Assembly (NCBI GenBank): GCA_019058365.1
Contig: JAHPZE010000020.1
Coordinates: 13,714-77,713, forward strand
DNA length: 64,000 nt
Source of the DNA: Promethearchaeota archaeon
Lineage (GTDB): Archaea; Asgardarchaeota; Lokiarchaeia; Sigyniarchaeales; SOKP01
Direction: 5' to 3'
The position numbers were made by a program, and so were the translations under genes. The stretch's first letter is position 1. Every line of letters starts with the position of its first letter. The notes beneath the pieces were generated by a model, which ran no database searches, had not been told where the DNA came from, and saw only the letters and a program-made list of their open reading frames with translations. Shown in pieces: positions 17,817 through 64,000 of this stretch.

Positions 17817-17981
17817 AAGATTTTTGACAAATTTTTACAAATTTTCAAATATAAATAAACATATAAAATTTTTCCTAAATTCTATCAATAAAATTCTAAA
17901 TCTTAATAAGTTAAAGAATTTTTTTAACAATTAAAAAATTATAATTTTACTTCTTAAAAGTTAAGGATTGAGGAAAAAAAA

Positions 17982-18413
17982 ATGAGTGAAGAATGGAAAC
18001 ATGCATCTTGGGTATCAACTCTAGGGAAATGGGCTTGGTTAATAGGAATTGTAAGTGGAGTTATCGACATTTTAATAGTTCTTCCTAGTCTAATGCTCCT
18101 AGCATCTTTACCGTATGGTATTGGGATGGCTATAGGATATCCTATTTGGTGGATCATAGCTGGAATATTAGTAATATTAATCTCTTTTGTTATTATTAGG
18201 CCTAAATTCTCAAATAAATGTGCCAATAAAGATTGGGATGGTCTATGTAATTGGGTTATACCACTTGGAAGTATTAAATTCCCATGGATGCTTTTTTGGG
18301 GAATAGTTGTAGAAGTGTTGGGATATGGATGGGGTGGATTTGCAATTATAATACCTGCATTGGTCTTAATATTTGCTGGTCCAAAACCATATGAATGGAA
18401 AGCTGTAAAATAA
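17982..18413 (+). CDS. Hypothetical Trp/Gly-rich membrane protein
   Basis: 143 aa, 3-4 TM, GAGG upstream, T-tract downstream. Confidence 0.75.
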   Translation: MSEEWKHASWVSTLGKWAWLIGIVSGVIDILIVLPSLMLLASLPYGIGMAIGYPIWWIIAGILVILISFVIIRPKFSNKCANKDWDGLCNWVIPLGSIKFPWMLFWGIVVEVLGYGWGGFAIIIPALVLIFAGPKPYEWKAVK

Positions 18414-52392: not shown

Positions 52393-53748
52393 TTATTTCA
52401 ATAAACTTTTCTCTTTAGCATCTAATTCTAACCAATCACTTACATTTTTTAATTGTTTTCTTGAAGCTCCACATAGTAACTTTAAAAATGGAAGGAATCC
52501 TTGAATGAAATCGATTTGAGAGATTTGATATTTTCTTTTAAGCTTTTCTACAAATTCTTTTTCAACAGTTGTTAAAGAAAAATACGTTCCTGAAGTGTAT
52601 CTTGGAAATACAACTCTCTGAAATCCTTTTGATAAAGGTGTATCTTTTCTAGATAAAGCAACACCTCCAGCAAAGAGATCAAAAAAATAGGGTAGAAGTC
52701 CCCAATATTGTGTAGTGCGAATTCTACCAAAAATTTCATCTGCTAACGAGAGATTCTCAAAAGCATTGGCAAGGTCTCTATTTGATTTCAGGAAAGTAAG
52801 GAGATTTTCGTTTATCCATTTATATAGAAAGTTGTAATCAACATCAGATTTGTCAGTTAAATCTCTAGCTTCTTTTAAAGATGAAATTTTAAATAAATCC
52901 CTAATTAGGGTAAAAATTTCTTCCAAATTATCACGATGTAAACTTAGAATTAAATCTTTAACATCTCCTTCTATCTTTCCTTGACCAATTCCTTGAATAT
53001 CATTAATTACTCCTCTCAAATCTCCGTTATTTTTATCTATAATTAACTCTAAATCTTCATTTTTGAGATTTGTAATATTCTCCTTCTTTAAGATATTATT
53101 TGCTATTTTAATTACTTCATTCTTGGGTAAAGGATGAACCTCATACCTATTAATCTTATTATATAATGGTTGTAGATTTGTTTTATATTCATTAGAACAC
53201 ATTATAATAGGGAACTGCGTATTCTGAATTAAATCCAAAACTGTAGGAATTGCCCCTCTATCTTGAACGCCATAAATTCCATCAATCTCATCAATAAGTA
53301 TTAATTTCTCTTTTGATTCAGTAATAAAATCCATGATTCCTCGAGATTTAGTAGTTTCTTTCAATCTCCTTTCTAATGTATTTCTTGTTCGTGTATCAGA
53401 TGCGTTAGTTTCTATTACTTCCATATTAAAATCATTTGCAAGTGCATAAACAATAGATGTTTTACCAATTCCAGGAGGACCCTCTAATAAAACAGCGGCG
53501 ATATCAGAAGATATTTTTTTTTCTTCTTTTTGCTCCTTTTCAATTACAGTTCTATTAAATTCCCGAATTTCTTTATTCTCAATATTGATCTTTTTTCTTT
53601 CTTCGAAGAAATGTTTTATAAAATTCTCTAATTCTTCACTCAAGTTAATTCGTTGCCTGCCCAGTCTAGCAGAGGGTAAAGCCATTTCCTTGATGCTCTT
53701 TGGGCGATATTTCTCCACCCACGGAATATCTGAATCCTTTTTTGACAT
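52393..53748 (-). CDS. rfcL: Replication factor C large subunit
   Basis: PWVEKYRP, GPPGIGKT, ETNASD, LIDEIDG, GDLRGVIND. Confidence 0.93.
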   Translation of the reverse strand: MSKKDSDIPWVEKYRPKSIKEMALPSARLGRQRINLSEELENFIKHFFEERKKINIENKEIREFNRTVIEKEQKEEKKISSDIAAVLLEGPPGIGKTSIVYALANDFNMEVIETNASDTRTRNTLERRLKETTKSRGIMDFITESKEKLILIDEIDGIYGVQDRGAIPTVLDLIQNTQFPIIMCSNEYKTNLQPLYNKINRYEVHPLPKNEVIKIANNILKKENITNLKNEDLELIIDKNNGDLRGVINDIQGIGQGKIEGDVKDLILSLHRDNLEEIFTLIRDLFKISSLKEARDLTDKSDVDYNFLYKWINENLLTFLKSNRDLANAFENLSLADEIFGRIRTTQYWGLLPYFFDLFAGGVALSRKDTPLSKGFQRVVFPRYTSGTYFSLTTVEKEFVEKLKRKYQISQIDFIQGFLPFLKLLCGASRKQLKNVSDWLELDAKEKSLLK

Positions 53749-53761
53749 TTGCTTTACTCAC

Positions 53762-54808
53762 CTACATATATTCTGAAAATAAACAGATTTTTGATAGAAG
53801 AGCAGATATTTGAATATCTATATCTCTCCCATCAAGTGTTCTGAAGTCAGAATCGGCAATTAAGTTAATTAATTTAATCCTAGTAAATTTACTTAGTGGT
53901 AGTTTATTAATTTCAATAAGTATAAGCCGATAAAATTCATGAGCACTAAATTTATAACTCGAAAGAATTTTTCGTGATAATTCCCGAGCTTTTGGGAAAT
54001 TTCCTTTAAAAGCTACTAATAAAAGGCTTTTAATAAGATCATTATGAAATTTCTGAGCGTTTTCATATAAAATTTCAACAGTAATGTTATTTCCATTAAT
54101 ACTACTTAACTGTAAGAGATCAATTGCTCGAGAGATTTTACTATCTGAAATTCGATACAAAATTTCAATACATTCGTCAGAAATTTCTAATGACTCTTTT
54201 TTAGCGATATAAAGAATCAATTCTTTAAATTCAACAAATTTAACACGAGAAATCAGTATTATTTGACATCTACTAACAATAGGATTAATTATACTTGAAA
54301 CATTAGTCGTAATTAAAATCATCCTACAATTAGTTCCATAAATCTCCATTAATCTTCTAAAACCTTGTTGGTTTGATCCTAAAGCTTCGAAATTTTTCAC
54401 AACAAGAATCTTAAATGGAGCATTCCCTAATACTTTTAATTGAACAAAAGGCTTTACTCTGGCTTGAATAAATGCTGGAGTTGTAATGCTTCTTCCAGCA
54501 CTACTACCAATTTTATTAGTAGAAACATAAGCCTCAGCTTTAGCTTCTTTTCTCTCTTCATCAGTTAGAGGAACATCTGCGTAAATTAACTTAAAATTGG
54601 CGTCATAATCTTTACCCAGAAATTCCTTTGAAAATAATTGTGCAATTACCGTTTTTCCGATATCATTCGAGCCTACCAATAATAAATGTGGAAAATTATT
54701 TTGTTGAATTATATGCTTTAAGGTCTCTTTAACCGTTTCTCTTCCACTGATCTCATCCAAGTTCTTTGGATGGTACTTTATTCGCCATATTGGAATTTCT
54801 TCAGTCAT
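53762..54808 (-). CDS. Second RFC small subunit with degenerate ATPase motifs
   Basis: WRIKYHP, Walker A GSNDIGKT, Walker B replaced by VKNFE, retains QQGFRR and PIVSRC. Confidence 0.82.
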   Translation of the reverse strand: MTEEIPIWRIKYHPKNLDEISGRETVKETLKHIIQQNNFPHLLLVGSNDIGKTVIAQLFSKEFLGKDYDANFKLIYADVPLTDEERKEAKAEAYVSTNKIGSSAGRSITTPAFIQARVKPFVQLKVLGNAPFKILVVKNFEALGSNQQGFRRLMEIYGTNCRMILITTNVSSIINPIVSRCQIILISRVKFVEFKELILYIAKKESLEISDECIEILYRISDSKISRAIDLLQLSSINGNNITVEILYENAQKFHNDLIKSLLLVAFKGNFPKARELSRKILSSYKFSAHEFYRLILIEINKLPLSKFTRIKLINLIADSDFRTLDGRDIDIQISALLSKICLFSEYM

Positions 54809-54845
54809 ATTTGCTTTCCTTAAGATCCTTTTTTTTTATAAATCC

Positions 54846-55817
54846 TTAAATTTGAATATATTCTATGATCGTTGCTAAAAGTGCTGAAATCTGCATTTTT
54901 TCATCTGCCCCTTGACTTATTCGATAATCGATTTCTCCAATATATGTCTTTAAATTGACTAGATTTATAGGCTCTATTTTTAATGAAGGTAAAACCTCCG
55001 ATATTTGCCTTATGAAATTACGACTGTCAAGAATTTCAATAGAATCAAAAATTTCTTTCGAACTCATAAAATCCTTTTTCTTTAGGACTGAAATTAAACT
55101 ATTTAAAGTTTTTTCGTCTAAAAATCCTGAAATTCTTAAAATTTCATTTATGTCTAAATTTTCCAAAAGTTCAAGAGCCACCGCCATCTGTAGAGTATTT
55201 ATAGCTTTCCTTAAATCTCCTCCCGAAATAAAAAATAAATGATTGAAAAATTGCTCCGATTTATCAGAAGGGATTTTCAATTTCTCTTTTGTAACAATAT
55301 ATTTTAATCTATCGATTATCTTTTCTTTTGGTAAACTTACAAATCTAAATACTGCGCATCGAGAAATAATTGGATCTATTATTCTATTTATATAATTACA
55401 TAAGAGGATGAACTTTATATTATTAGATGTTTTTTCAATAATCCTCCTAAGAGCCTGTTGGACTGTTCCAGGAATATTATCAGCTTCATCTAAAATTACG
55501 AATTTTAATGACCCGTTTTTAATTAAGCTCTGATTAACAAAATTTTTTAGAACATTTCTTACAAAATCTATTCTTACAGTATCAGAGGCGTTCAATTCTA
55601 AAAGATTTGTATCCAACTCCTCCTCTTTAAGAAAATGTTTTGCTATTATCAAGGCAGTACTGGTTTTTCCTGTTCCTGCTGGACCAGTAAAAATCATGTG
55701 GGGCATATTTCTATTTCTGACAAACTCCTTAAGGTTGTTAATAGCAATGTTTTGACTCACAATATCATTAAATGTCTTTGGGCGATATGTCTCCACCCAC
55801 GGAATCTCCATGCTCAT
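54846..55817 (-). CDS. rfcS: Replication factor C small subunit
   Basis: WVETYRP, GPAGTGKT, LELNASD, LDEAD, QQALRR, SRC, GDLRKAIN. Confidence 0.96.
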   Translation of the reverse strand: MSMEIPWVETYRPKTFNDIVSQNIAINNLKEFVRNRNMPHMIFTGPAGTGKTSTALIIAKHFLKEEELDTNLLELNASDTVRIDFVRNVLKNFVNQSLIKNGSLKFVILDEADNIPGTVQQALRRIIEKTSNNIKFILLCNYINRIIDPIISRCAVFRFVSLPKEKIIDRLKYIVTKEKLKIPSDKSEQFFNHLFFISGGDLRKAINTLQMAVALELLENLDINEILRISGFLDEKTLNSLISVLKKKDFMSSKEIFDSIEILDSRNFIRQISEVLPSLKIEPINLVNLKTYIGEIDYRISQGADEKMQISALLATIIEYIQI

Positions 55818-56201
55818 CCTCTCAATTTAAATAAATCTTAATATTATTTTAAGACTATTATAATTAAAAAGAATGGAATATATTTAATTATTTCAAAGAA
55901 TAAGAAAAGATTTAGTAAACGCTCTTTAAATATAAAAATCTATTAATGACTTCTGGTTGGTTTGGGTAGCTCCTAAAAATTTATTATGAAGGATTCTAGA
56001 GGTATATTTAAGAATATTTTTAAGATTATATCTATCTTTAAAAATCCCCAACTCTTTTAACTGTCTATAAAATTGTCTGAAAAGTAAATTTTTATATTCG
56101 ACACATCATCATAATACCAAAATTCAATTAAGATAATATCTTAATCACCACACATATCCAGCAAATATTCATCTCTCTCTTTTTGATTTTTATAATCTTT
56201 T

Positions 56202-56384
56202 GGTATTGAGAAAAGCGAGCTCCGTCAAATCGACTTAAATTTAGCAAGTTGGTATTTAATAGGAGTTTTTAAAGTGTTTGATTTAAAAATCGTTTATCAT
56301 GGAACCTTACCCCTAAAAGAGGAAATTAAATGTGTATTTGAACTTGTGCTTAAGGGTATTAAAATAAAATTTAAAGCTCATTAA
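56202..56384 (+). pseudogene. TetR-family C-terminal domain remnant, copy 1
   Basis: GIEKSELRQIDLNLASWYLIGVF...EEIKCVFELVLKGI; upstream frame broken by stops. Confidence 0.55.
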
Positions 56385-56466
56385 TTAAGATTTGAGGTAA
56401 TTTTCTCTTTATTCTTTAAATTCTTTAAATATTTCAGGAATAATTTTTTTTCCTTAATAATAGATT
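56274..56466. repeat. ~190-bp diverged direct repeat, copy 1 (copy 2 at 58253-58447)
   Basis: Collinear blocks GTGTTTGATTTAAAA, CCTAAAAGAGGAAATTAAAT, GGTAATTTTCTCTTTATT, CTTTAAATATTTCA in both copies. Confidence 0.85.
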
Positions 56467-57262
56467 CATTGTAATGAATAGGTTTTGAAAATTTTTTAAA
56501 ATAATTAAATATGTGATTTAACCACTCTATTCCTTTTGAATTATTAAAAAAAAGACATTCTTGATAATCAATTACATTATCAATTTTAGGTAAGCATAAT
56601 ATTCCTTGTTCGTCAAATATTGCTATATATAAATTGATATTCTCTATAAGAGAAACTTTAAGATTTGCTAACATTTTATTGGTAAACAATTCTCCTATAT
56701 TTTTATAGCAAATTAAATTCTTGAAGTTTTGATAATCAGTAATGATTTCTATGCTTTCTATATCATATTCTTTATTAGTCATTTGTATCATTTTTTCTTC
56801 TAACTCAAGGTTTAATTTTCCTGCAAGTTTTAAATTTAATATTTGACGTGGAACAGAGTTTTGTAAACTTAAAAATAAAGAAATTAAATCAGGTATAAGA
56901 GTTGGAGTTGTTCTATTAAATTCTCTTATTAAGTCTATATTCAATATAGGTAATAAATGGGATTTTAAATATATCAAAATGTCATGCGAGATTGGAATTT
57001 CTATTACTCTACTCCAAATAACATTGGAATAAGCATTTGTAAAATATTGATCCTCTGTGTGACAGAGTAATCCTGATTCAGTCATTTTTTTTAGATGGTA
57101 CTCTAGGGTTGATGAAGAAATTTTTAATTTTTTTACAAGTTCATTAAATTTCAATGGTTGAGAGTTATTTATTAAAAGTTCTAGAATATTTATTCTAATT
57201 TTTGATTTGAGTATTTTAAAAATTTCGGAATTAATAACATTAAATTTCATACATAGGACCAT
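56381..57262 (-). CDS. ArsR-like winged-helix regulator (DUF1724-like) whose C-terminus lies in the repeat
   Basis: RINILELL...SSTLEYHLKKM; ends LFLKYLKNLKNKEKIT like the rfcS fragment. Confidence 0.78.
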   Translation of the reverse strand: MVLCMKFNVINSEIFKILKSKIRINILELLINNSQPLKFNELVKKLKISSSTLEYHLKKMTESGLLCHTEDQYFTNAYSNVIWSRVIEIPISHDILIYLKSHLLPILNIDLIREFNRTTPTLIPDLISLFLSLQNSVPRQILNLKLAGKLNLELEEKMIQMTNKEYDIESIEIITDYQNFKNLICYKNIGELFTNKMLANLKVSLIENINLYIAIFDEQGILCLPKIDNVIDYQECLFFNNSKGIEWLNHIFNYFKKFSKPIHYNESIIKEKKLFLKYLKNLKNKEKITSNLN

Positions 57263-57536
57263 ATCTCTTTAAATTTAAGATATATAAATTTTTATCAAGA
57301 TTTATAAGGTTAATAATTAAATTAATCTATTCAATATAATCTGGAAAAAGAGATTATATAGTAGCGCTTATAATTTAAACAAAATTTTTAATATCATACG
57401 AATATATTTAAATCATTCAAATCTTTTATCAAAAAGCTTTATAAATGGATATTTGGTATGATCTCTTAACAAACTTAAAAATTTTTCATAAAATATTATA
57501 ATTCACTAATTAAATCTTTGAAAAGAAAATTCTACT

Positions 57537-58157
57537 ATGTTGATAATCGCAATTCTTAATTTTATTCTTTTAATTTTCTCTCTTTTCTCGGTAGGATATT
57601 TTTACACTTTGAGTAGTCAACCTTTGAAGAAGATTAAAAAATATGGTGATAATACGTGGAAAAAAAGTACTCAATTTCGATCTACTGCAGGAATATTTGA
57701 ATTTATCTCAGTAATCAATTTAATTCTATGGATTTGGTTTCCTCTCCCTATAGTAAGTAATTGGAGAATGAGTCAAGATTATTGGATTGCAATTATTATT
57801 GGAATATGCATATTTATCCCATCACTCATTCTTTTAGGTAAAGGAGTGAAAAATGCGGGTTCTGAAACGATGAGTCCTTCCCCCGAGACCCAACTCTATG
57901 GAGGAATATATAATTATATTCGTCATCCTCAAACTATTGGAGAATTTCTAATTTATATCGCACTCGGATTTGCGCTAAATTCTTGGTTCCTTATTCTTAT
58001 TTTGTCAACTTTCATTATAATCTATACACCCATTATGTTTTATTTTGAAGAGAAAGATCTTGCTAGAAAATATGGGGAAAAATATTTAAAATATAAAAAA
58101 AGAACAGGGGCTATAATTCCAAAATTAAGAAAGAAAAAGAAATCTATTAATAACTAA
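57537..58157 (+). CDS. Isoprenylcysteine carboxyl methyltransferase / PEMT family membrane methyltransferase
   Basis: GGIYNYIRHPQ, EEKDL...YGEKYLKYKKRT. Confidence 0.85.
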   Translation: MLIIAILNFILLIFSLFSVGYFYTLSSQPLKKIKKYGDNTWKKSTQFRSTAGIFEFISVINLILWIWFPLPIVSNWRMSQDYWIAIIIGICIFIPSLILLGKGVKNAGSETMSPSPETQLYGGIYNYIRHPQTIGEFLIYIALGFALNSWFLILILSTFIIIYTPIMFYFEEKDLARKYGEKYLKYKKRTGAIIPKLRKKKKSINN

Positions 58158-58159
58158 AA

Positions 58160-58197
58160 TTCTCAAAATGATACGTTCTCAAAATGATACGTACTCA
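58160..58197. repeat. 16-bp tandem repeat (2 copies plus a partial third)
   Basis: TTCTCAAAATGATACG x2, then TACTCA. Confidence 0.85.
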
Positions 58198-58252
58198 TTC
58201 TTTTAAATGACTAATAGTTGCACCTTGGTTACGAATTCTTGGAATCTGGAAC

Positions 58253-58447
58253 GTGTTTGATTTAAAATTCGTTAACCATAGAACCTAACACCTAAAAGAG
58301 GAAATTAAATCTGTAATTGAATTTGCACTCGAAGATATTAAAATTAAATAAATTAAACTCATTGATTATGATATGGGGTAATTTTCTCTTTATTTTTTAA
58401 ACCCTTTAAATATTTCAAGAATAATTCTTCCTCTTTAAGAAAATATT
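58253..58447. repeat. ~190-bp diverged direct repeat, copy 2 (includes a TetR 3' remnant on + strand)
   Basis: + frame VFDLKFVNHRT*HLKEEIKSVIEFALEDIKIK matches copy 1. Confidence 0.85.
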
Positions 58448-58619
58448 TTGCTATAATTAATGCTGTACTTGTTTTTCCTGTTCCTACTGGACCTGTAAAA
58501 ATTAGATAAGGTATACTTATTGTTTTCACAAATTCACTTAGATTATTTATTGCTATTTTCTGGCTAACAATCTCATCAAATGTTCTTGGGCGATATTTCT
58601 CTGTCCAAACGTCCAACAT
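58359..58619 (-). pseudogene. Orphan 5' fragment of RFC small subunit fused to repeat-derived tail
   Basis: WTEKYRP...GPVGTGKT...FLKEEEL; 46/62 aa identical to the rfcS N-terminus by manual alignment. Confidence 0.85.
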
Positions 58620-58649
58620 GTCAGTAATCCTATTGGTATTATCAAAAAA

Positions 58650-59126
58650 CTAAACTTTAGAGTTCTTTTCTGTTAGATCCAACTCTAAAACTTCATAAAC
58701 CTTCTTGAATTTCATTTGTTCATAAAGTTTAGAAGCTTCCACTGCTCTTTCTTTAATATTTACTCGAATTTTCTCAACTTTTATCTTTTTTAAATGCTCT
58801 AAGGCTTTTTCTAACAAAAGACTTCCTACTCCTTTTTTACGGTAAGATTCCTTTAGAAAAAATTGCTTAATATAGCCCTCAGATAAACCAAATGGATCAA
58901 TTCGTAGCTCAGCAATAATCATTCCTATAACGTCATTAGAATCTTCATCAATCGCTACTAATATCCCATGACGTTGAAGTGGATCATATAGACGACGTCG
59001 TATTCCCCAATCAAATCGCTTAGGATCAAATTTTTGCCCCAATCCCTCTACTAATTCTTTAGTTAACTCTTTTAAGTCTTCAATATGATCAGGAGAGGCT
59101 ACTTCAACTTTAATATTTGAACTCAT
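58650..59126 (-). CDS. GNAT family N-acetyltransferase
   Basis: YRKKGVGSLLL acetyl-CoA motif, ASKLYEQMKF. Confidence 0.9.
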   Translation of the reverse strand: MSSNIKVEVASPDHIEDLKELTKELVEGLGQKFDPKRFDWGIRRRLYDPLQRHGILVAIDEDSNDVIGMIIAELRIDPFGLSEGYIKQFFLKESYRKKGVGSLLLEKALEHLKKIKVEKIRVNIKERAVEASKLYEQMKFKKVYEVLELDLTEKNSKV

Positions 59127-59308
59127 GTTTTACCATCGTTAATGACATTTACTTTCTTATTAAAATAATAATTGCTATTTTAAAATTTAAATTTTCTTGA
59201 CTAAAAATTAATAAAATAACAAGTGAGGTGTTAATTAATATATCTTTTAATTAAAACAATAGCATTTTAAAAAAATTAAAATGGAATTGGCATTTGTGAA
59301 TAAAAATA

Positions 59309-59593
59309 TTAAAAATGGCGAGCAGATGTACCATCCCAAGCCCTAACACTTTCATTTACCCATCCACACTTTGGACATTTATCTGGAAGCTCCCAATTTT
59401 CAAGTGCTGGATGGATACGACAATATAGTCCACCACAACTAGCACATACTAGATATTTTGCTCCACAGCCGGAACACATTTTCAGTTGACCTTGTTCCAC
59501 AAACGGAAAAGCTCTCCGCATCCATTCATCATGGGCCAGAGAGAAGGATTCTTTTCCACACACAATACAATGAACTCCATCCTCTTCAGACAT
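59309..59593 (-). CDS. Small multi-CxxC zinc-finger protein
   Basis: CIVC, CSGC, CASC, CPKC. Confidence 0.8.
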   Translation of the reverse strand: MSEEDGVHCIVCGKESFSLAHDEWMRRAFPFVEQGQLKMCSGCGAKYLVCASCGGLYCRIHPALENWELPDKCPKCGWVNESVRAWDGTSARHF

Positions 59594-59795
59594 TTCTCTA
59601 ATTCAACTCACATTTTATTATTTTTAATTAATAAATTTTATTATAATTTAGGTTTAATCGAGTTAGATATAATACATTTACTAGTTAGTAATATTAATTA
59701 AATAATAAAATTACAAATTAAATATTTTCTTATAAGTAAGAATTAGTTAAAAAATAAATTATAAATTGAAGAAATATGAAAAAGAGTTATTATCT

Positions 59796-60119
59796 TTACA
59801 TTTCTAATTTCTTAGCTGCTCCAGCTCCTGTTACTTCAGGATTGACCGCTTCAAGGTTTTGAATTAATGTATATATTGCATCTTCTTCTAAAGCTTCTTT
59901 AAAAGCAATATACATCTCTTTACTTCCAATAAATAATCCTTTTCGCTTCATTGGTTTACCATCGCTTTTTAAAGGATTTACTTCTAGAAATAATAAAGCT
60001 GGTCTCGTTTTTGTTGCAGGAACTTTAACTACAAATACACCGGGGACGGGAGTCTCCATTTTTTCCCAATCTTTTCCACTTTTCAAATGATCTTTCAATT
60101 GTGTTTGAATGTCTACCAT
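59796..60119 (-). CDS. Conserved hypothetical protein
   Basis: 107 aa; PGVFVVKVP...LEVNP...PMKRKGLF. Confidence 0.75.
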   Translation of the reverse strand: MVDIQTQLKDHLKSGKDWEKMETPVPGVFVVKVPATKTRPALLFLEVNPLKSDGKPMKRKGLFIGSKEMYIAFKEALEEDAIYTLIQNLEAVNPEVTGAGAAKKLEM

Positions 60120-60384
60120 TTTAATTCACAGAATAAATTTGTAATATATGTTACGTGTTACATATAATATTTATTTAAAAATTTTTGGATCGAATTAAAA
60201 TCTTAAACCTTCCTAAAAAATTAATAAATTGATTGATTATAAAATTACTATGAATATATTATTTAAAACTAATATTTAGAATTACAATAGCATTCTGTCG
60301 GATTTCTTGGGGTCAATTTCCACTAAACCTTTAAATATATCACTCTCGTATATATTTTTATCAGTCAAAATAAAAAAGAAATAG

Positions 60385-60615
60385 ATGTTTGAGATGAAAT
60401 TAATTTCAGTAAACCTACCCGAATCCTATCTTAAGGTTTTAGAGATACTCGTAGTTGATGGAAAATTCCCTAATAGAAGTGAAGCGATTCGTGTGGCTAT
60501 AAGGGATTTAATAAAAACAGAATATTTGATAGAAGAATCAGTAAATAGAAATCTTGCACCAAGTTTAATAAAATCTGAAGTGGAAAATGAGATCCAAGAA
60601 AATCTATTAATCTAA
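60385..60615 (+). CDS. Ribbon-helix-helix regulator, CdrS-like
   Basis: MKLISVNLP...GKFPNRSEAIRVAIRDLI. Confidence 0.85.
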   Translation: MFEMKLISVNLPESYLKVLEILVVDGKFPNRSEAIRVAIRDLIKTEYLIEESVNRNLAPSLIKSEVENEIQENLLI

Positions 60616-60665
60616 ACAATTTTTTTTTCTTTTTTTTAAAACAGTTTGTTAAAAGGTTGATTTCT

Positions 60666-63600
60666 TTATTCCTCACTCTTTCCTAACAAATCTAAAACCT
60701 TTTTCCTTCTCTCTTCTCTTCGCGTTTTGATTCTTTTTCTAAGTTTCTCCATTTCGTCTTCAGTTGGTTCTTCTTTACCTTTAACTAATTCTTTAATTGG
60801 TTTCTTACTGACTTTAGCTTTTAGGTCATTAATTTTTTTATCAATTTCTTTAATGAATTTTTTTCCTATTTTTAGTTCTTTGAGTTGATATTTAGCTTCA
60901 TTTAGTTCAGAAATAACTTTCTTGAATTGACCATTAGCTAATGATACATGAGCTTCATCTAATGCTTTGTATGCAGATTCAAAATTTATATTCTCCAAAT
61001 CATCAAAGGATACATCTACTGTTATTAAAGGAATTTGTGTTTCAGTTTTAATTATATTAATTTGCTCAGTAATTCTCTCAATTTCATTTAATTTTTCTAA
61101 TTTGGTCAATCTTTGGACTTCTTTTCTTAGTATCATAATTCCCTCATTATATCTGAAACTATCGATTAATCTATCTGCCTTATCCAATTTAATAGAGATC
61201 TTTCTATCAAGTTCTTCTTTAGCAAGTTTACGCTTCTCTTCTTTTTTTCTCTTTTCAAGTTCTTTATGTTCTCTCTTTGCTTCTTCCTTTAAAATTGCCA
61301 TTTCTTTTTCTTCTTCTATTTTTTTAATTTTAATATCTTCATAAATCTCAGCTTGTTTTTGTTCCCTTTTAAGTTTGAAAAGAAGTTCATTATTTATTCG
61401 TGAAACTTCTCGTTGCCAAGATACTTTTTCGAATAATTCTCGAGCAGCGATATACTTCTCATACGCCTCAGTGAATTTACCACGATCCATTAATGCTGTG
61501 CCTTCTTCTAAAAGTTCATATGCTTCTTCAGATATTTGTCGTTCCTGTTCTTTTTCGCTCTGAATTTTTAGGAACTCTTTTCTTTTCTCTTCTTGTTGCT
61601 GCTTTTTTATAATTTGCGCCTCAGCTAATTTTTCTTCTAATTTTTCTTCAATAAGTACTTTTTCGGCTTTCCTTTTTTCGATAGCTTCTTGTTCAAGCTC
61701 AAATGCTTTTTTCTTATTAATAATCATTGTAATTGAATCTCGAACCATCTTGATTCCTTCTTGCCATTCTATGTCTGAAAATATTTTTTCACTTTCTTTG
61801 TAAACTTCAATGGCATTTTCAAAATGATTTTGTCTTAATTCACGTTTAGCTTGATCCATTAAACGAAAAGCTTTATCTTTTTGGGTTTCGAATTGGGCGA
61901 CTCGTTCTTTTTTTAAATGTAGAGATTCTTTTCGCTGTTGTAGTAATTTTTCTTGCTCAATTCTCGCTTGTTCTAATAATTTTTGTTGAAGCATTAATTC
62001 TTCTTCTCGTTTTTTAACTTTTTCGGCTTCTAAAGCACGAATATTGTTATCTTTTACTAATTTTTCCTTGTAAAATTTAATAGTCTCGACTAGTTTAGCT
62101 GATTCTTCTTTCCAATCAATTTTTTCAAATTGCTTCCGTGCGTCGCGATAAATTTCAATAATTTTTTCATATGGTGCTTCAAAATCAAAAACACCACCTT
62201 TAATTTTTAGTTCATACTCCTGAGCCATTCTCTCAGCTTTTTGAATCATATTAAAAATTCCCGCTGTAATATCATCAGATTCTTTTTCTTTCTGTTGAAT
62301 TTCTAATAATCTTTTTTGTCTTTCAAGAAAATCTTTATCAATATCAAAATCAGGAGCTACTAATTCAATTTCTGGCTTTTCTAATTTCTTTTGTTCGAGG
62401 ATTCTTAAATTGTCATCCTTTTCTTTTTTATCCTCATAAAATTTAATTGTTTTAGTTAAACGATTAGCTTCATCATTCCACCCAATTTTTTGGAATATTT
62501 CTCGTGCTTGTTCATAATTAGATATTGCTTTTTCATAAGGACTTTCATACACTAAAATTTCTTTTCTAATGTTTAATTCATAACGTTTAACTTCTTTTTC
62601 GGTTTCATCGATAAGATTCATTGCATTGTCTAATAAAACGTCTTCTTCTTTTTCAGTTTCAAGTTCTTCTATTTTTTCTGGTTTAAATGGTTTAACTTCT
62701 TTTTTCCCCGCTTTTTGCAATTCGTCTAGTTCTTTTTCTCTTTGGGCTTTCTGAGCCTCAACCTCGAGTAGATTTTGATGCTTCTCTAATTTCTCTTGAT
62801 AAATTTTAATCTGATTGGCATATACTTCTGCCTGGTCTTTCCATCCCCTCGCATAGATTTTTTCTCGTATTTCTTTATATATTTCTATTATCTTTAGATA
62901 GGGGGTTTGTTCTATTATTTCCCCTTTTTTAATAGCTTTTTTCATAACTGTATCAAATTCTCTTTCAAGTTTCCCTGCTTTGTTAACCTCTTCCGTAATA
63001 TATTTTTGAAATTCTTTTTCTTCTTTTTTTCTATCAATAACTTCTAGTTTTTTATGGTCAACTTCAACATCCTTTTCTACTTTATGCATCTCTTCGATAT
63101 CCTTTTCCCTTTGGATTTTCTGAGCCTCAACCTCGAGTAGATTTTGATGCTTCTCTAATTTCTCTTGATAAATTTTAATCTGATTAGCATATACTTCTGC
63201 CTGGTCTTTCCATCCCCTCGCATAGACTTTTTCTCGTATTTCTTTATATATTTCTATTATATCTAAATAGGGGGTTTGTTCTATTATTTCCCCTTTTTTA
63301 ATAGCTTTTTTCATATCCATTTCATAGTCACGTACTACTTTTTCAGCTTTATTTATCCTATCATTAATATATTCTTCAAAAGCTTCTTCTTCCTTTTGGT
63401 CCTCAATAACTTCTAGTTTTTTATGGTCAACTTCAACTTTCTTTTCTAGTTTATGCATCTCTTCGATATCTTTTTCCCTTTGGACTTTCTGAGCCTCAAC
63501 TTCAAGTAGATTTTGATGCTTCTCTAATTTCTCTTGATAAATTTTAATCTGATTAGCATATACTTCTGCCTGGTCTTTCCATCCCCTCGCATAGACTTTT

Positions 63601-63998
63601 TCTCGTATTTCTTTATATATTTCAATAACGTCTGAATATGGTGTATTCTTTATTATTTCCCCTTTTTTAATAGCCTTTCTCATATCCATTTCATAGTCAC
63701 GTACTACTTTTTCAGCTTTATTTATCCTGTCATTAATATATTTTTCAAAAGCTTCTTCTTCCTTTTGGTCCTCAATAACTTCTAGTTTTTTATGGTCAAC
63801 TTCAACTTTCTTTTCTAGTTTATGCATCTCTTCGATATCTTTTTCCCTTTGGACTTTCTGAGCCTCAACTTCAAGTAGATTTTGATGCTTCTCTAATTTC
63901 TCTTGATAAATTTTAATCTGATTGGCATATACTTCTGCCTGGTCTTTCCATCCCCTCGCATAGACTTTTTCTCGTATTTCTTTATATATTTCAATAAC
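60666..63998 (-). CDS. Giant helical/coiled-coil repeat protein (5' end beyond window)
   Basis: Frame open to the window edge; 123-aa repeats with PY...Y...GW..QA motif. Confidence 0.85.
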   Translation of the reverse strand, partial: VIEIYKEIREKVYARGWKDQAEVYANQIKIYQEKLEKHQNLLEVEAQKVQREKDIEEMHKLEKKVEVDHKKLEVIEDQKEEEAFEKYINDRINKAEKVVRDYEMDMRKAIKKGEIIKNTPYSDVIEIYKEIREKVYARGWKDQAEVYANQIKIYQEKLEKHQNLLEVEAQKVQREKDIEEMHKLEKKVEVDHKKLEVIEDQKEEEAFEEYINDRINKAEKVVRDYEMDMKKAIKKGEIIEQTPYLDIIEIYKEIREKVYARGWKDQAEVYANQIKIYQEKLEKHQNLLEVEAQKIQREKDIEEMHKVEKDVEVDHKKLEVIDRKKEEKEFQKYITEEVNKAGKLEREFDTVMKKAIKKGEIIEQTPYLKIIEIYKEIREKIYARGWKDQAEVYANQIKIYQEKLEKHQNLLEVEAQKAQREKELDELQKAGKKEVKPFKPEKIEELETEKEEDVLLDNAMNLIDETEKEVKRYELNIRKEILVYESPYEKAISNYEQAREIFQKIGWNDEANRLTKTIKFYEDKKEKDDNLRILEQKKLEKPEIELVAPDFDIDKDFLERQKRLLEIQQKEKESDDITAGIFNMIQKAERMAQEYELKIKGGVFDFEAPYEKIIEIYRDARKQFEKIDWKEESAKLVETIKFYKEKLVKDNNIRALEAEKVKKREEELMLQQKLLEQARIEQEKLLQQRKESLHLKKERVAQFETQKDKAFRLMDQAKRELRQNHFENAIEVYKESEKIFSDIEWQEGIKMVRDSITMIINKKKAFELEQEAIEKRKAEKVLIEEKLEEKLAEAQIIKKQQQEEKRKEFLKIQSEKEQERQISEEAYELLEEGTALMDRGKFTEAYEKYIAARELFEKVSWQREVSRINNELLFKLKREQKQAEIYEDIKIKKIEEEKEMAILKEEAKREHKELEKRKKEEKRKLAKEELDRKISIKLDKADRLIDSFRYNEGIMILRKEVQRLTKLEKLNEIERITEQINIIKTETQIPLITVDVSFDDLENINFESAYKALDEAHVSLANGQFKKVISELNEAKYQLKELKIGKKFIKEIDKKINDLKAKVSKKPIKELVKGKEEPTEDEMEKLRKRIKTRREERRKKVLDLLGKSEE

Positions 63999-64000
63999 GT
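62751..64000. repeat. 369-bp near-identical intragenic tandem repeats (more than 3 copies)
   Basis: CTGAGCCTCAAC recurs at 62751, 63120, 63489 and 63858. Confidence 0.95.

Follow-up and report, generated by a model that had tools for sequence, protein, structure and literature searches.

Why does the clamp-loader gene rfcS of a Promethearchaeota archaeon of the class Lokiarchaeia begin twice, once as a broken fragment next to a GNAT acetyltransferase gene and again, about 2.6 kb further along, as a complete gene with a diverged 5′ end? The locus lies on the minus strand of a 64,000 nt stretch of contig JAHPZE010000020.1 (assembly GCA_019058365.1), here called the window. A sequence-only reading had proposed an integrative element that, as SXT/R391 ICEs do in prfC, inserted into the 5′ end of rfcS and restored it with an element-borne segment, was decayed or mobilised in trans, as no recombinase remains, and had exchanged host and element DNA at a 16-mer repeated at both junctions.

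We first asked whether this arrangement is real, and it is. The fragment (58422..58619, −; 66 codons, matching rfcS up to codon 68) starts at 58619, 30 nt after the GNAT stop at 58650, and matches the full rfcS, which starts at 55817, at 46/62 aa (74.2%) and at 78% of nucleotides over 179 nt. The 16-mer lies at 55621-55636 and 58429-58444 and nowhere else in the 4.74 Mb assembly. One unitig of the probable source run spans 53500-59271 at even depth with no difference, and contigs from two other samples of the same study bridge the left junction (58276-58741 and 58283-58663), also with no difference. No joint that skips the island cleanly and no excision joint was found among the contigs, although assembled contigs can show presence but not absence. 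The alignment of GNAT-rfcS loci across related genomes, which had been named beforehand as a test, showed that the GNAT gene (58650..59126, −; PF00583) is directly adjacent to an intact rfcS in 45 of 45 other genomes of the genus, hence an empty site.

The two 5′ ends of rfcS differ in origin. Over codons 7-43 the stub is 84% identical in nucleotides to the nearest relatives, genomes G005 and G027, whereas the replacement is only 72% identical. The stub is decaying, as it carries H40Y and A47V at positions invariant in 179 intact rfcS, and N23K, which is seen in none of them. In the full gene, codons 1-44 (55686..55817, −) are foreign (71-72% to G005/G027, 71% over codons 8-44 to G005), whereas the gene body is 94-98% identical. 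From codon 45 onward (54846..55685, −), starting with Walker A, the gene looks native: only 2 of 66 nt differ from G005 over codons 45-66, the lowest value of 161 alleles with equally diverged starts (mode 17-18), and the body groups with G005/G027 at support values of 100/99. The change from foreign to host-like sequence falls at codons 44-56 and not at the 16-mer, which corresponds to codons 61-66, is ordinary coding sequence and is found exactly in 7 empty alleles; a 15-nt identical run lies 40 nt earlier in the same duplicate. The Walker A motif, which the sequence-only reading had placed in the replaced segment, lies within codons 45-66, which look native.

What lies between the two starts? 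The stub runs, in frame and through about 20 nt of imperfect microhomology, into a copy (58241..58447, −) of the 3′ end of an HTH gene plus about 120 nt that include the 3′ end of a convergent gene relic; in the second copy (56262..56466, −; 82% identical) the relic runs up to the broken left edge of the decayed endonuclease described next. The relic could not be identified. The cargo consists of a PEMT/ICMT-type membrane methyltransferase (57537..58157, +; PF04191), which has a 55% paralog beside an HTH paralog on contig C48 of this genome, and an ArsR-type winged-HTH regulator of 293 aa (56381..57262, −; PF01022), whose nearest homologs are only 37-43% identical. Two features had been missed. 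One is the decayed 3′ end of a predicted endonuclease (55926..56203, −; the last ~92 codons), with an in-frame stop near 56140, a 1-nt frameshift near 56100 and a PIP-like tail. The other is a conserved, element-borne promoter-like block directly before the replacement start (55818..55899, −), consisting of a purine run plus a TATA-like box at 55894-55879, followed by a ribosome-binding site; its function is inferred. In a profile search, every distinct full-length hit to this block was followed by an rfcS start, whole or stub, and the block was not found in empty alleles and occurs once in this genome. A sigma-70 promoter scan, which is unsuited to archaea, found nothing. The genes rfcS2 and rfcL follow downstream (52393..54808, −; Pfam assignments) and are presumably driven from the imported promoter, as inferred from spacing only.

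We further explored the remnant through its intact homologs, which are 521-692 aa long and carry zinc ribbons, a predicted Vsr/I-Bth0305I-type fold and a PIP-like tail. The remnant is 90% identical over 332 nt to the gene of the intact protein P0024 at locus L337 and 54-81% identical in amino acids to the homologs P0023-P0028. A model of the catalytic domain (pLDDT 96) matched Vsr (Z 9.2, rmsd 2.9, 112 aligned residues) and the homing endonuclease I-Bth0305I (Z 9.1, rmsd 3.2, 96 aligned), tied with the FASTKD4 RAP domain (9.5) and DUF559 (8.6), while the next unrelated entries scored 7.5 or less apart from another RAP-type chain. A fold from a single sequence reached a pLDDT of only 33, and Foldseek gave no match under an E-value of 0.001. 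Residues D446, E463, H469 and D490 of P0025 are invariant in 80 sequences, as read from sequence and not from a superposition on the E-D-x-H-D catalytic residues. PHROG hits are homing and intron-encoded nucleases, and neither PHROG nor Pfam gave a LAGLIDADG hit. Pfam gave no NUMOD hit either; the proteins have a weak HTH and Cys/His ribbons instead, and distant homologs hit DUF4379 zinc fingers.

Where do these homologs reside? The closest ones were found by protein search, blind to position, and lie 80-100 bp before an rfcS start: P0023 and P0176 (loci L331 and L349), P0025 (L338), and P0027 and P0178 (L341 and L346). P0024 lies between an rfcS stub and the promoter block at a contig end, and L337 represents a minimal element of GNAT, 24-codon stub, nuclease and promoter and nothing else. 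Loci L106, L123 and L127 show the same nuclease end before rfcS. The nuclease and promoter of L337 are 90% identical to those of the window while its GNAT is only 73% identical, so the element moved between host lineages, and the rfcS bodies with the nuclease upstream do not form one clade (AU p = 1e-6). Tandem relics were also observed, namely three promoter or stub units in L332, an older nuclease tail in L341, and a promoter plus 18-codon stub in genome G104. Distant homologs (23-24% aa identity) repeat the same anatomy at other genes: they sit between a 20-24-codon stub and an intact, re-spelled start at ribD (genomes G103 and G024; the site is empty in this genome, L331 and L128) and at a CoxE-type vWA gene (G012, G018, G020 and G076). 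A GTDB-wide pattern scan for the nuclease found nothing, and a search of 400 genomes of the phylum, in which incomplete genomes do not show absence, found the rfcS-type subfamily only in this genome and distant homologs only in the same family. Four scans of viral contigs for a carrier returned one unrelated AAA ATPase and phage clamp loaders only.

The best explanation, to which we assign a probability of about 0.76, is that the island is the decayed remains of an intron-less homing element, whose active unit is an endonuclease gene, a promoter and a re-spelled rfcS 5′ end. In this view, the nuclease would cut an empty rfcS allele in its 5′ part, and the downstream broken end would be repaired by homologous recombination on a donor rfcS, copying in the re-spelled start, the promoter and the nuclease gene, while the upstream end would be joined by flank homology or microhomology, leaving the old start as a stub. 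The new hybrid gene would lack the cut site and be expressed from the imported promoter, so that no splicing is needed. Repeated invasions and illegitimate joins would then pile up cargo and relics upstream, newest next to rfcS; in this genome most of the nuclease would later have been lost and a deletion would have fused the stub to the HTH gene tail. The anatomy, the hybrid gene, the predicted nuclease fold, the linkage to rfcS and the scattered distribution are shown by our analysis, whereas cleavage, the cut site, immunity of the occupied allele and promoter activity are inferred. Some observations fit this model less well. The rfcS stubs vary in length (8, 18, 24, 39, ~42, 62, ~66 and 83 codons), so that no single cut site can be read, whereas those at ribD and vWA cluster at 20-24 codons; here, the stub runs about 20 codons past the apparent crossover. 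One homolog (P0028, L342) is followed by an unrelated gene, and L081 has stub, cargo and replacement but neither nuclease nor promoter block. Homing also needs two alleles in one cell, which has to be assumed for Lokiarchaeia, and multi-gene cargo is unusual for homing elements. Inserts in L128, L228, L229/L233/L234 and L237/L240 have neither stub nor nuclease and were not counted as this element. The mosaic region upstream was not claimed as a co-conversion tract of the element either, since much of the foreign tract appears to be in G005/G027.

Among the alternatives, the strongest, although unlikely, is homology-facilitated illegitimate recombination, in which foreign DNA is anchored by ordinary recombination in the conserved rfcS and joined by microhomology on the other side, with the nuclease as a passenger that happens to travel with the promoter. 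The variable stub ends, the microhomology at the stub-HTH junction, the heterogeneous cargo, the lack of a nuclease in L081 and the mosaic upstream region even among empty alleles are in line with it, and it probably does explain how cargo entered. It does not explain why the nuclease is the gene next to the promoter and start in several lineages, why L337 holds nothing else, or why distant homologs reproduce the order of stub, nuclease and new start at ribD and vWA.

The interpretation offered by the sequence-only reading is only partly supported. It was right that a mobile element targets the 5′ end of rfcS, strands the native start and supplies a foreign start and probably a promoter, and that other genomes carry other cargo at this site. 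An SXT-like integrase with an att core at the 16-mer, decayed or mobilised in trans, is very unlikely and already largely refuted: besides the position of the crossover and the presence of the 16-mer in empty alleles, stub ends differ between loci, and no recombinase was found among the called genes of six complete islands (those of the window, L337, L338, L332, L081 and L128). In its favour remain the unique repeat at both ends, the variable cargo at one gene and two tyrosine recombinases elsewhere in the genome, on contigs C7 and C46; no resolvase-family match was found in this genome. The mobilising enzyme thought to be absent appears to be present as a remnant, and it is a predicted endonuclease, not a recombinase. 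A local duplication of the rfcS start followed by divergence and gene insertion could draw on the second, 82% duplicate inside the island, but it is refuted by L337, where promoter and nuclease have 90% homologs in another lineage, and replacement codons 8-44, which are 71% identical to G005 against 95% for the body with no loss of function motifs, also speak against it. A chimeric assembly of two strains, conceivable for a metagenome with a contamination estimate of 6.6%, is all but excluded by the spanning unitig and the bridging contigs.

If the homing reading is right, the third route of homing, which swaps a gene end instead of splicing and has been described in yeast and fungal mitochondria, also operates on Asgard archaeal chromosomes, using a different nuclease fold and the opposite gene end and having to import a promoter for an essential replication operon. 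It would name a site-specific nuclease family with at least three predicted targets, provide indirect evidence that Lokiarchaeia exchange chromosomal DNA between lineages by recombination, show an island type that integrase-based island finders miss, and warn that rfcS 5′ ends in these genomes can be chimeric. More tentatively, and somewhat less likely than not, one family of zinc-ribbon, Vsr-fold endonucleases in Lokiarchaeia (Promethearchaeia) may have specialised in replacing promoter and start at several genes (rfcS, ribD, vWA), docking on PCNA to cut at replication forks, and at rfcS may work as an integrase-free gene-capture site that accretes metabolic and defence cargo (pAgo, TIR) in tandem and rewires transcription of the clamp-loader operon.

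Literature searches, in a collection that is incomplete, found no element described at rfcS, but the proposed organization resembles, as a 5′ mirror, the WHO elements at FBA1 in Torulaspora and Lachancea yeasts (PMC7282813; bioRxiv 10.64898/2026.08.13.744650). These are likewise intron-less, intein-less endonuclease genes with zinc fingers beside an essential host gene, carry a diverged piece of that gene, and leave a hybrid gene with discordant halves, stranded fragments and clusters of relics with the newest next to the intact gene; some relatives reside at other host genes. In the archaeal case, a nuclease next to a foreign gene end that restores the host gene, with the native end stranded, was found in the window, L337 and L338 and at the ribD and vWA loci. 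However, WHO is a LAGLIDADG enzyme related to HO and VDE, replaces the 3′ half, is eukaryotic and nuclear and is shown to cut, whereas the archaeal element has a predicted Vsr-fold nuclease with a PIP-like tail and only inferred cutting, replaces promoter and 5′ end of a replication operon on an archaeal chromosome, carries metabolic and defence cargo and leaves rfcS stub ends that do not cluster. In the mobile ORFs (mORFs) of fungal mitochondria that make hybrid genes (Allomyces atp6; Glomus atp6, atp9, cox2 and nad3; PMC3630166; related Tremella cases, PMC7315562), an endonuclease ORF also inserts in coding DNA with a foreign gene end and displaces the native end, but the replacement is C-terminal, the enzymes are LAGLIDADG or GIY-YIG, the setting is organellar, no promoter is needed and there is no multi-gene cargo. 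With I-Bth0305I of the EDxHD homing endonuclease family (PMC3239194; PDB 3r3p) and Vsr (1cw0) the predicted nuclease shares the catalytic fold and, as read from sequence, conserved Asp, His and Asp in the same order, at 12% identity in the structural match; I-Bth0305I is 266 aa long and intron-encoded with NUMOD repeats, whereas the archaeal proteins are free-standing, with an HTH-like segment, Cys/His zinc ribbons and the PIP-like tail. SXT/R391 ICEs at prfC share the insertion in the 5′ end of an essential gene that is restored by an element-borne 5′ segment and promoter, as well as variable cargo, but differ in that the archaeal islands have no integrase among the called genes of the six complete ones, no fixed att core and no conjugation genes, and measure 1.5-8 kb rather than about 100 kb.

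The stub of rfcS begins at 58619, 30 nt after the stop codon of the GNAT gene, and matches the expressed rfcS (start at 55817) at 46 of 62 residues. A 16-mer shared by the two copies occurs at 55621-55636 and 58429-58444 and nowhere else in the assembly. One unitig spans the island with no difference, and two further samples bridge the left junction. All 45 other genomes of the genus with this locus have GNAT directly before an intact rfcS, as do 69 of 80 metagenome loci and most loci of the other genera of the family. The observation made in the sequence-only reading, an rfcS split by an island that supplies a new 5' end, is real, and the insertion is recent relative to the genomes G005 and G027, two close relatives whose rfcS bodies are 94-98% identical.

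Over codons 7-43 the stub is 84% identical to G005/G027 and the replacement 72%, identifying the stub as the native start. The stub keeps the native spacer and is decaying, with the changes H40Y and A47V hitting positions that are invariant in 179 intact genes, whereas the replacement has no close match (best 81%). The surroundings are variable even without an insertion: compared with the corresponding loci of G005 and G027 (L031/L032), about 2.4 kb upstream of rfcS (~58430-60800) is mosaic, with 70-88% identity where the flanks reach 95-99%, and the GNAT gene of G005 is 92-99% identical to that of locus L078, pointing to frequent recombination even in empty alleles. Further along, at 60666-64000 on the minus strand, lies a gene for a large Lys/Glu-rich protein with 123-aa (369-nt) tandem repeats that are 81-90% alike.

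The sequence-only reading had taken the 16-mer for the integration site of an SXT/R391-like integrative element that replaces the Walker-A-containing N-terminus and the promoter, and this interpretation is only partly supported. The 16-mer is not an att core: it constitutes codons 61-66 of rfcS, is exact in 7 empty alleles, and a 15-nt identical run lies just before it. Mismatches between the expressed gene and that of G005 are dense to codon 44 and sparse after it, and codons 45-66 differ at 2 of 66 nt, the lowest value of 161 alleles with equally diverged starts. Walker A thus looks native and the exchange lies at codons 44-56, although later recombination could have moved it. The end of the stub is better explained by a microhomology join to a second copy of the tail of the HTH gene (58241-58447 versus 56262-56466, 82% identity). 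At other filled loci the stubs end at about 8 (L332), 18 (genome G104), 24 (L337), 39 (L338), 42 (L081), 62 (L345) and 83 (L344) codons; L345 and L344 are short contigs and may have other causes, and the stub in L344 is followed by IS630 relics.

The right end of the island, which had been overlooked, is homologous to the DNA before rfcS in other filled loci. It holds the last ~92 codons of a nuclease gene (56203-55926, with one stop and one frameshift) and an 80-nt promoter-like block (55899-55818). In a profile search every distinct full-length hit of that block is followed by an rfcS start, whole or truncated, and empty alleles lack it. Its function as a promoter is inferred from sequence and from need, since in empty alleles rfcS follows GNAT by about 30 nt. 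Downstream, between rfcS and rfcL, a second RFC small subunit with a degenerate Walker B and an insert after Walker A is encoded at 53762-54808 on the minus strand.

Protein searches blind to position returned the intact homologs P0023-P0028. P0023/P0176, P0025 and P0027/P0178 lie 80-100 bp before an rfcS start, while P0024 in locus L337 lies between the 24-codon stub and the promoter-like block with no other gene and thus forms a minimal element. P0028 is followed by an unrelated gene and P0026 is cut by its contig end. The proteins have an HTH-like segment, Cys/His ribbons, a predicted catalytic domain and a PIP-like tail. A structure model with a pLDDT of 96 matches Vsr (Z 9.2) and I-Bth0305I (Z 9.1), tied with the Vsr-like RAP and DUF559 domains, but a shared fold does not show function. 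In docking predictions the P0024 tail was placed in the PIP pocket of the PCNA of this genome with a score of 0.79 against a best control of 0.03, a mark reached by 51 of 78 solved and 2 of 108 mismatched pairs, with the runs agreeing in at least 80% of contacts and a partner pLDDT of 53-54. As PIP-PCNA is a textbook complex, this shows likeness and not binding. RfcL (52393-53748, minus strand), in contrast to the invading nuclease, ends without an obvious C-terminal PIP motif.

As to mobility, the nuclease and promoter-like block of L337 are 90% identical to the remnant described here while its GNAT is 73% identical, and its nearest hosts are the loci L088, L095 and L107, which belong to another branch of the genus. 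Holding the seven nuclease-bearing rfcS bodies together in one clade is rejected (AU p = 1e-6), with 4 changes on the best tree, of which 2 are forced by strong branches. No recombinase appears among the genes of the complete islands. Relics accumulate upstream of rfcS: L332 has three promoter-like or stub units between cargo blocks, L341 an older nuclease tail and G104 a promoter-like block with a dead stub.

The cargo varies and includes an enoyl-CoA hydratase, a histidine kinase and a TPR protein. In L116 (103-3051) a short prokaryotic Argonaute and its partner gene (PADLOC pAgo class I) are located directly upstream of the element-type promoter and rfcS, and in L341 (615-1706) a CAP12/Pycsar-type TIR protein is encoded between two copies of the nuclease. 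The HTH and methyltransferase genes carried by the island studied here have a paralogous divergent pair (41% and 55% aa identity to the cargo) in a cluster of membrane and redox genes of this genome (contig C48, locus L039, 9192-10874). In L128 (1237-8112) a 7 kb methylamine-methyltransferase, corrinoid and MFS block lies between GNAT and rfcS, in which no stub or nuclease was found and which is not counted as this element.

The same design appears to recur independently at other genes. Distant homologs of the nuclease (23-24% aa identity to P0025) lie between a 20-24-codon stub and an intact re-spelled start of two further host genes. In the genomes G103 (L359, 1313-3162) and G024 (L361) the insertion is in the 5' end of ribD, with a stub of 20-23 codons, and this site is empty in this genome, L331 and L128. 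In the genomes G018, G012, G020 and G076 (L356, L357, L358 and L371, respectively) the nuclease gene is located in antisense orientation between a 20-24-codon stub and an intact CoxE-type vWA gene, following a MoxR-type ATPase gene; the ATPase and vWA genes lie 52 kb apart on contig C16 of this genome. The four vWA cases may share one origin. A related nuclease domain was also found within a very long open frame (2044 aa reported) near secY in contig C28 of genome G003 (L365, 1-2061), possibly an in-frame insertion or fusion, and this genome contains a relic of a distant nuclease homolog (124 codons) next to a pelota-like gene (contig C35, ~17900-18300).

The island most likely (with a probability of roughly three in four) derives from an intron-less homing element. 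In this view, the empty allele was cut and repaired on a donor from the rfcS side, whereby the re-spelled start, the promoter and the nuclease gene were imported and the old start was left behind as a stub, followed by decay and by the gain of cargo through illegitimate joins. Cleavage, the cut site, immunity of the occupied allele and promoter activity are inferred. The main alternative, illegitimate recombination anchored in rfcS with the nuclease as a passenger, appears unlikely as the overall explanation but probably contributes the cargo, and the integrase model is very doubtful.

As inferred, this arrangement would work like the WHO elements of yeast (PMC7282813; 10.64898/2026.08.13.744650) and the mobile ORFs of fungal mitochondria (PMC3630166), mirrored to the 5' end of the host gene. 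It is not a member of the WHO elements, as the enzyme is no LAGLIDADG nuclease and the target is a different one, nor does it belong to the SXT/R391 elements, as it has no integrase and no fixed att site. By its predicted fold, the nuclease resembles the EDxHD family (PMC3239194), of which it may or may not be a member.
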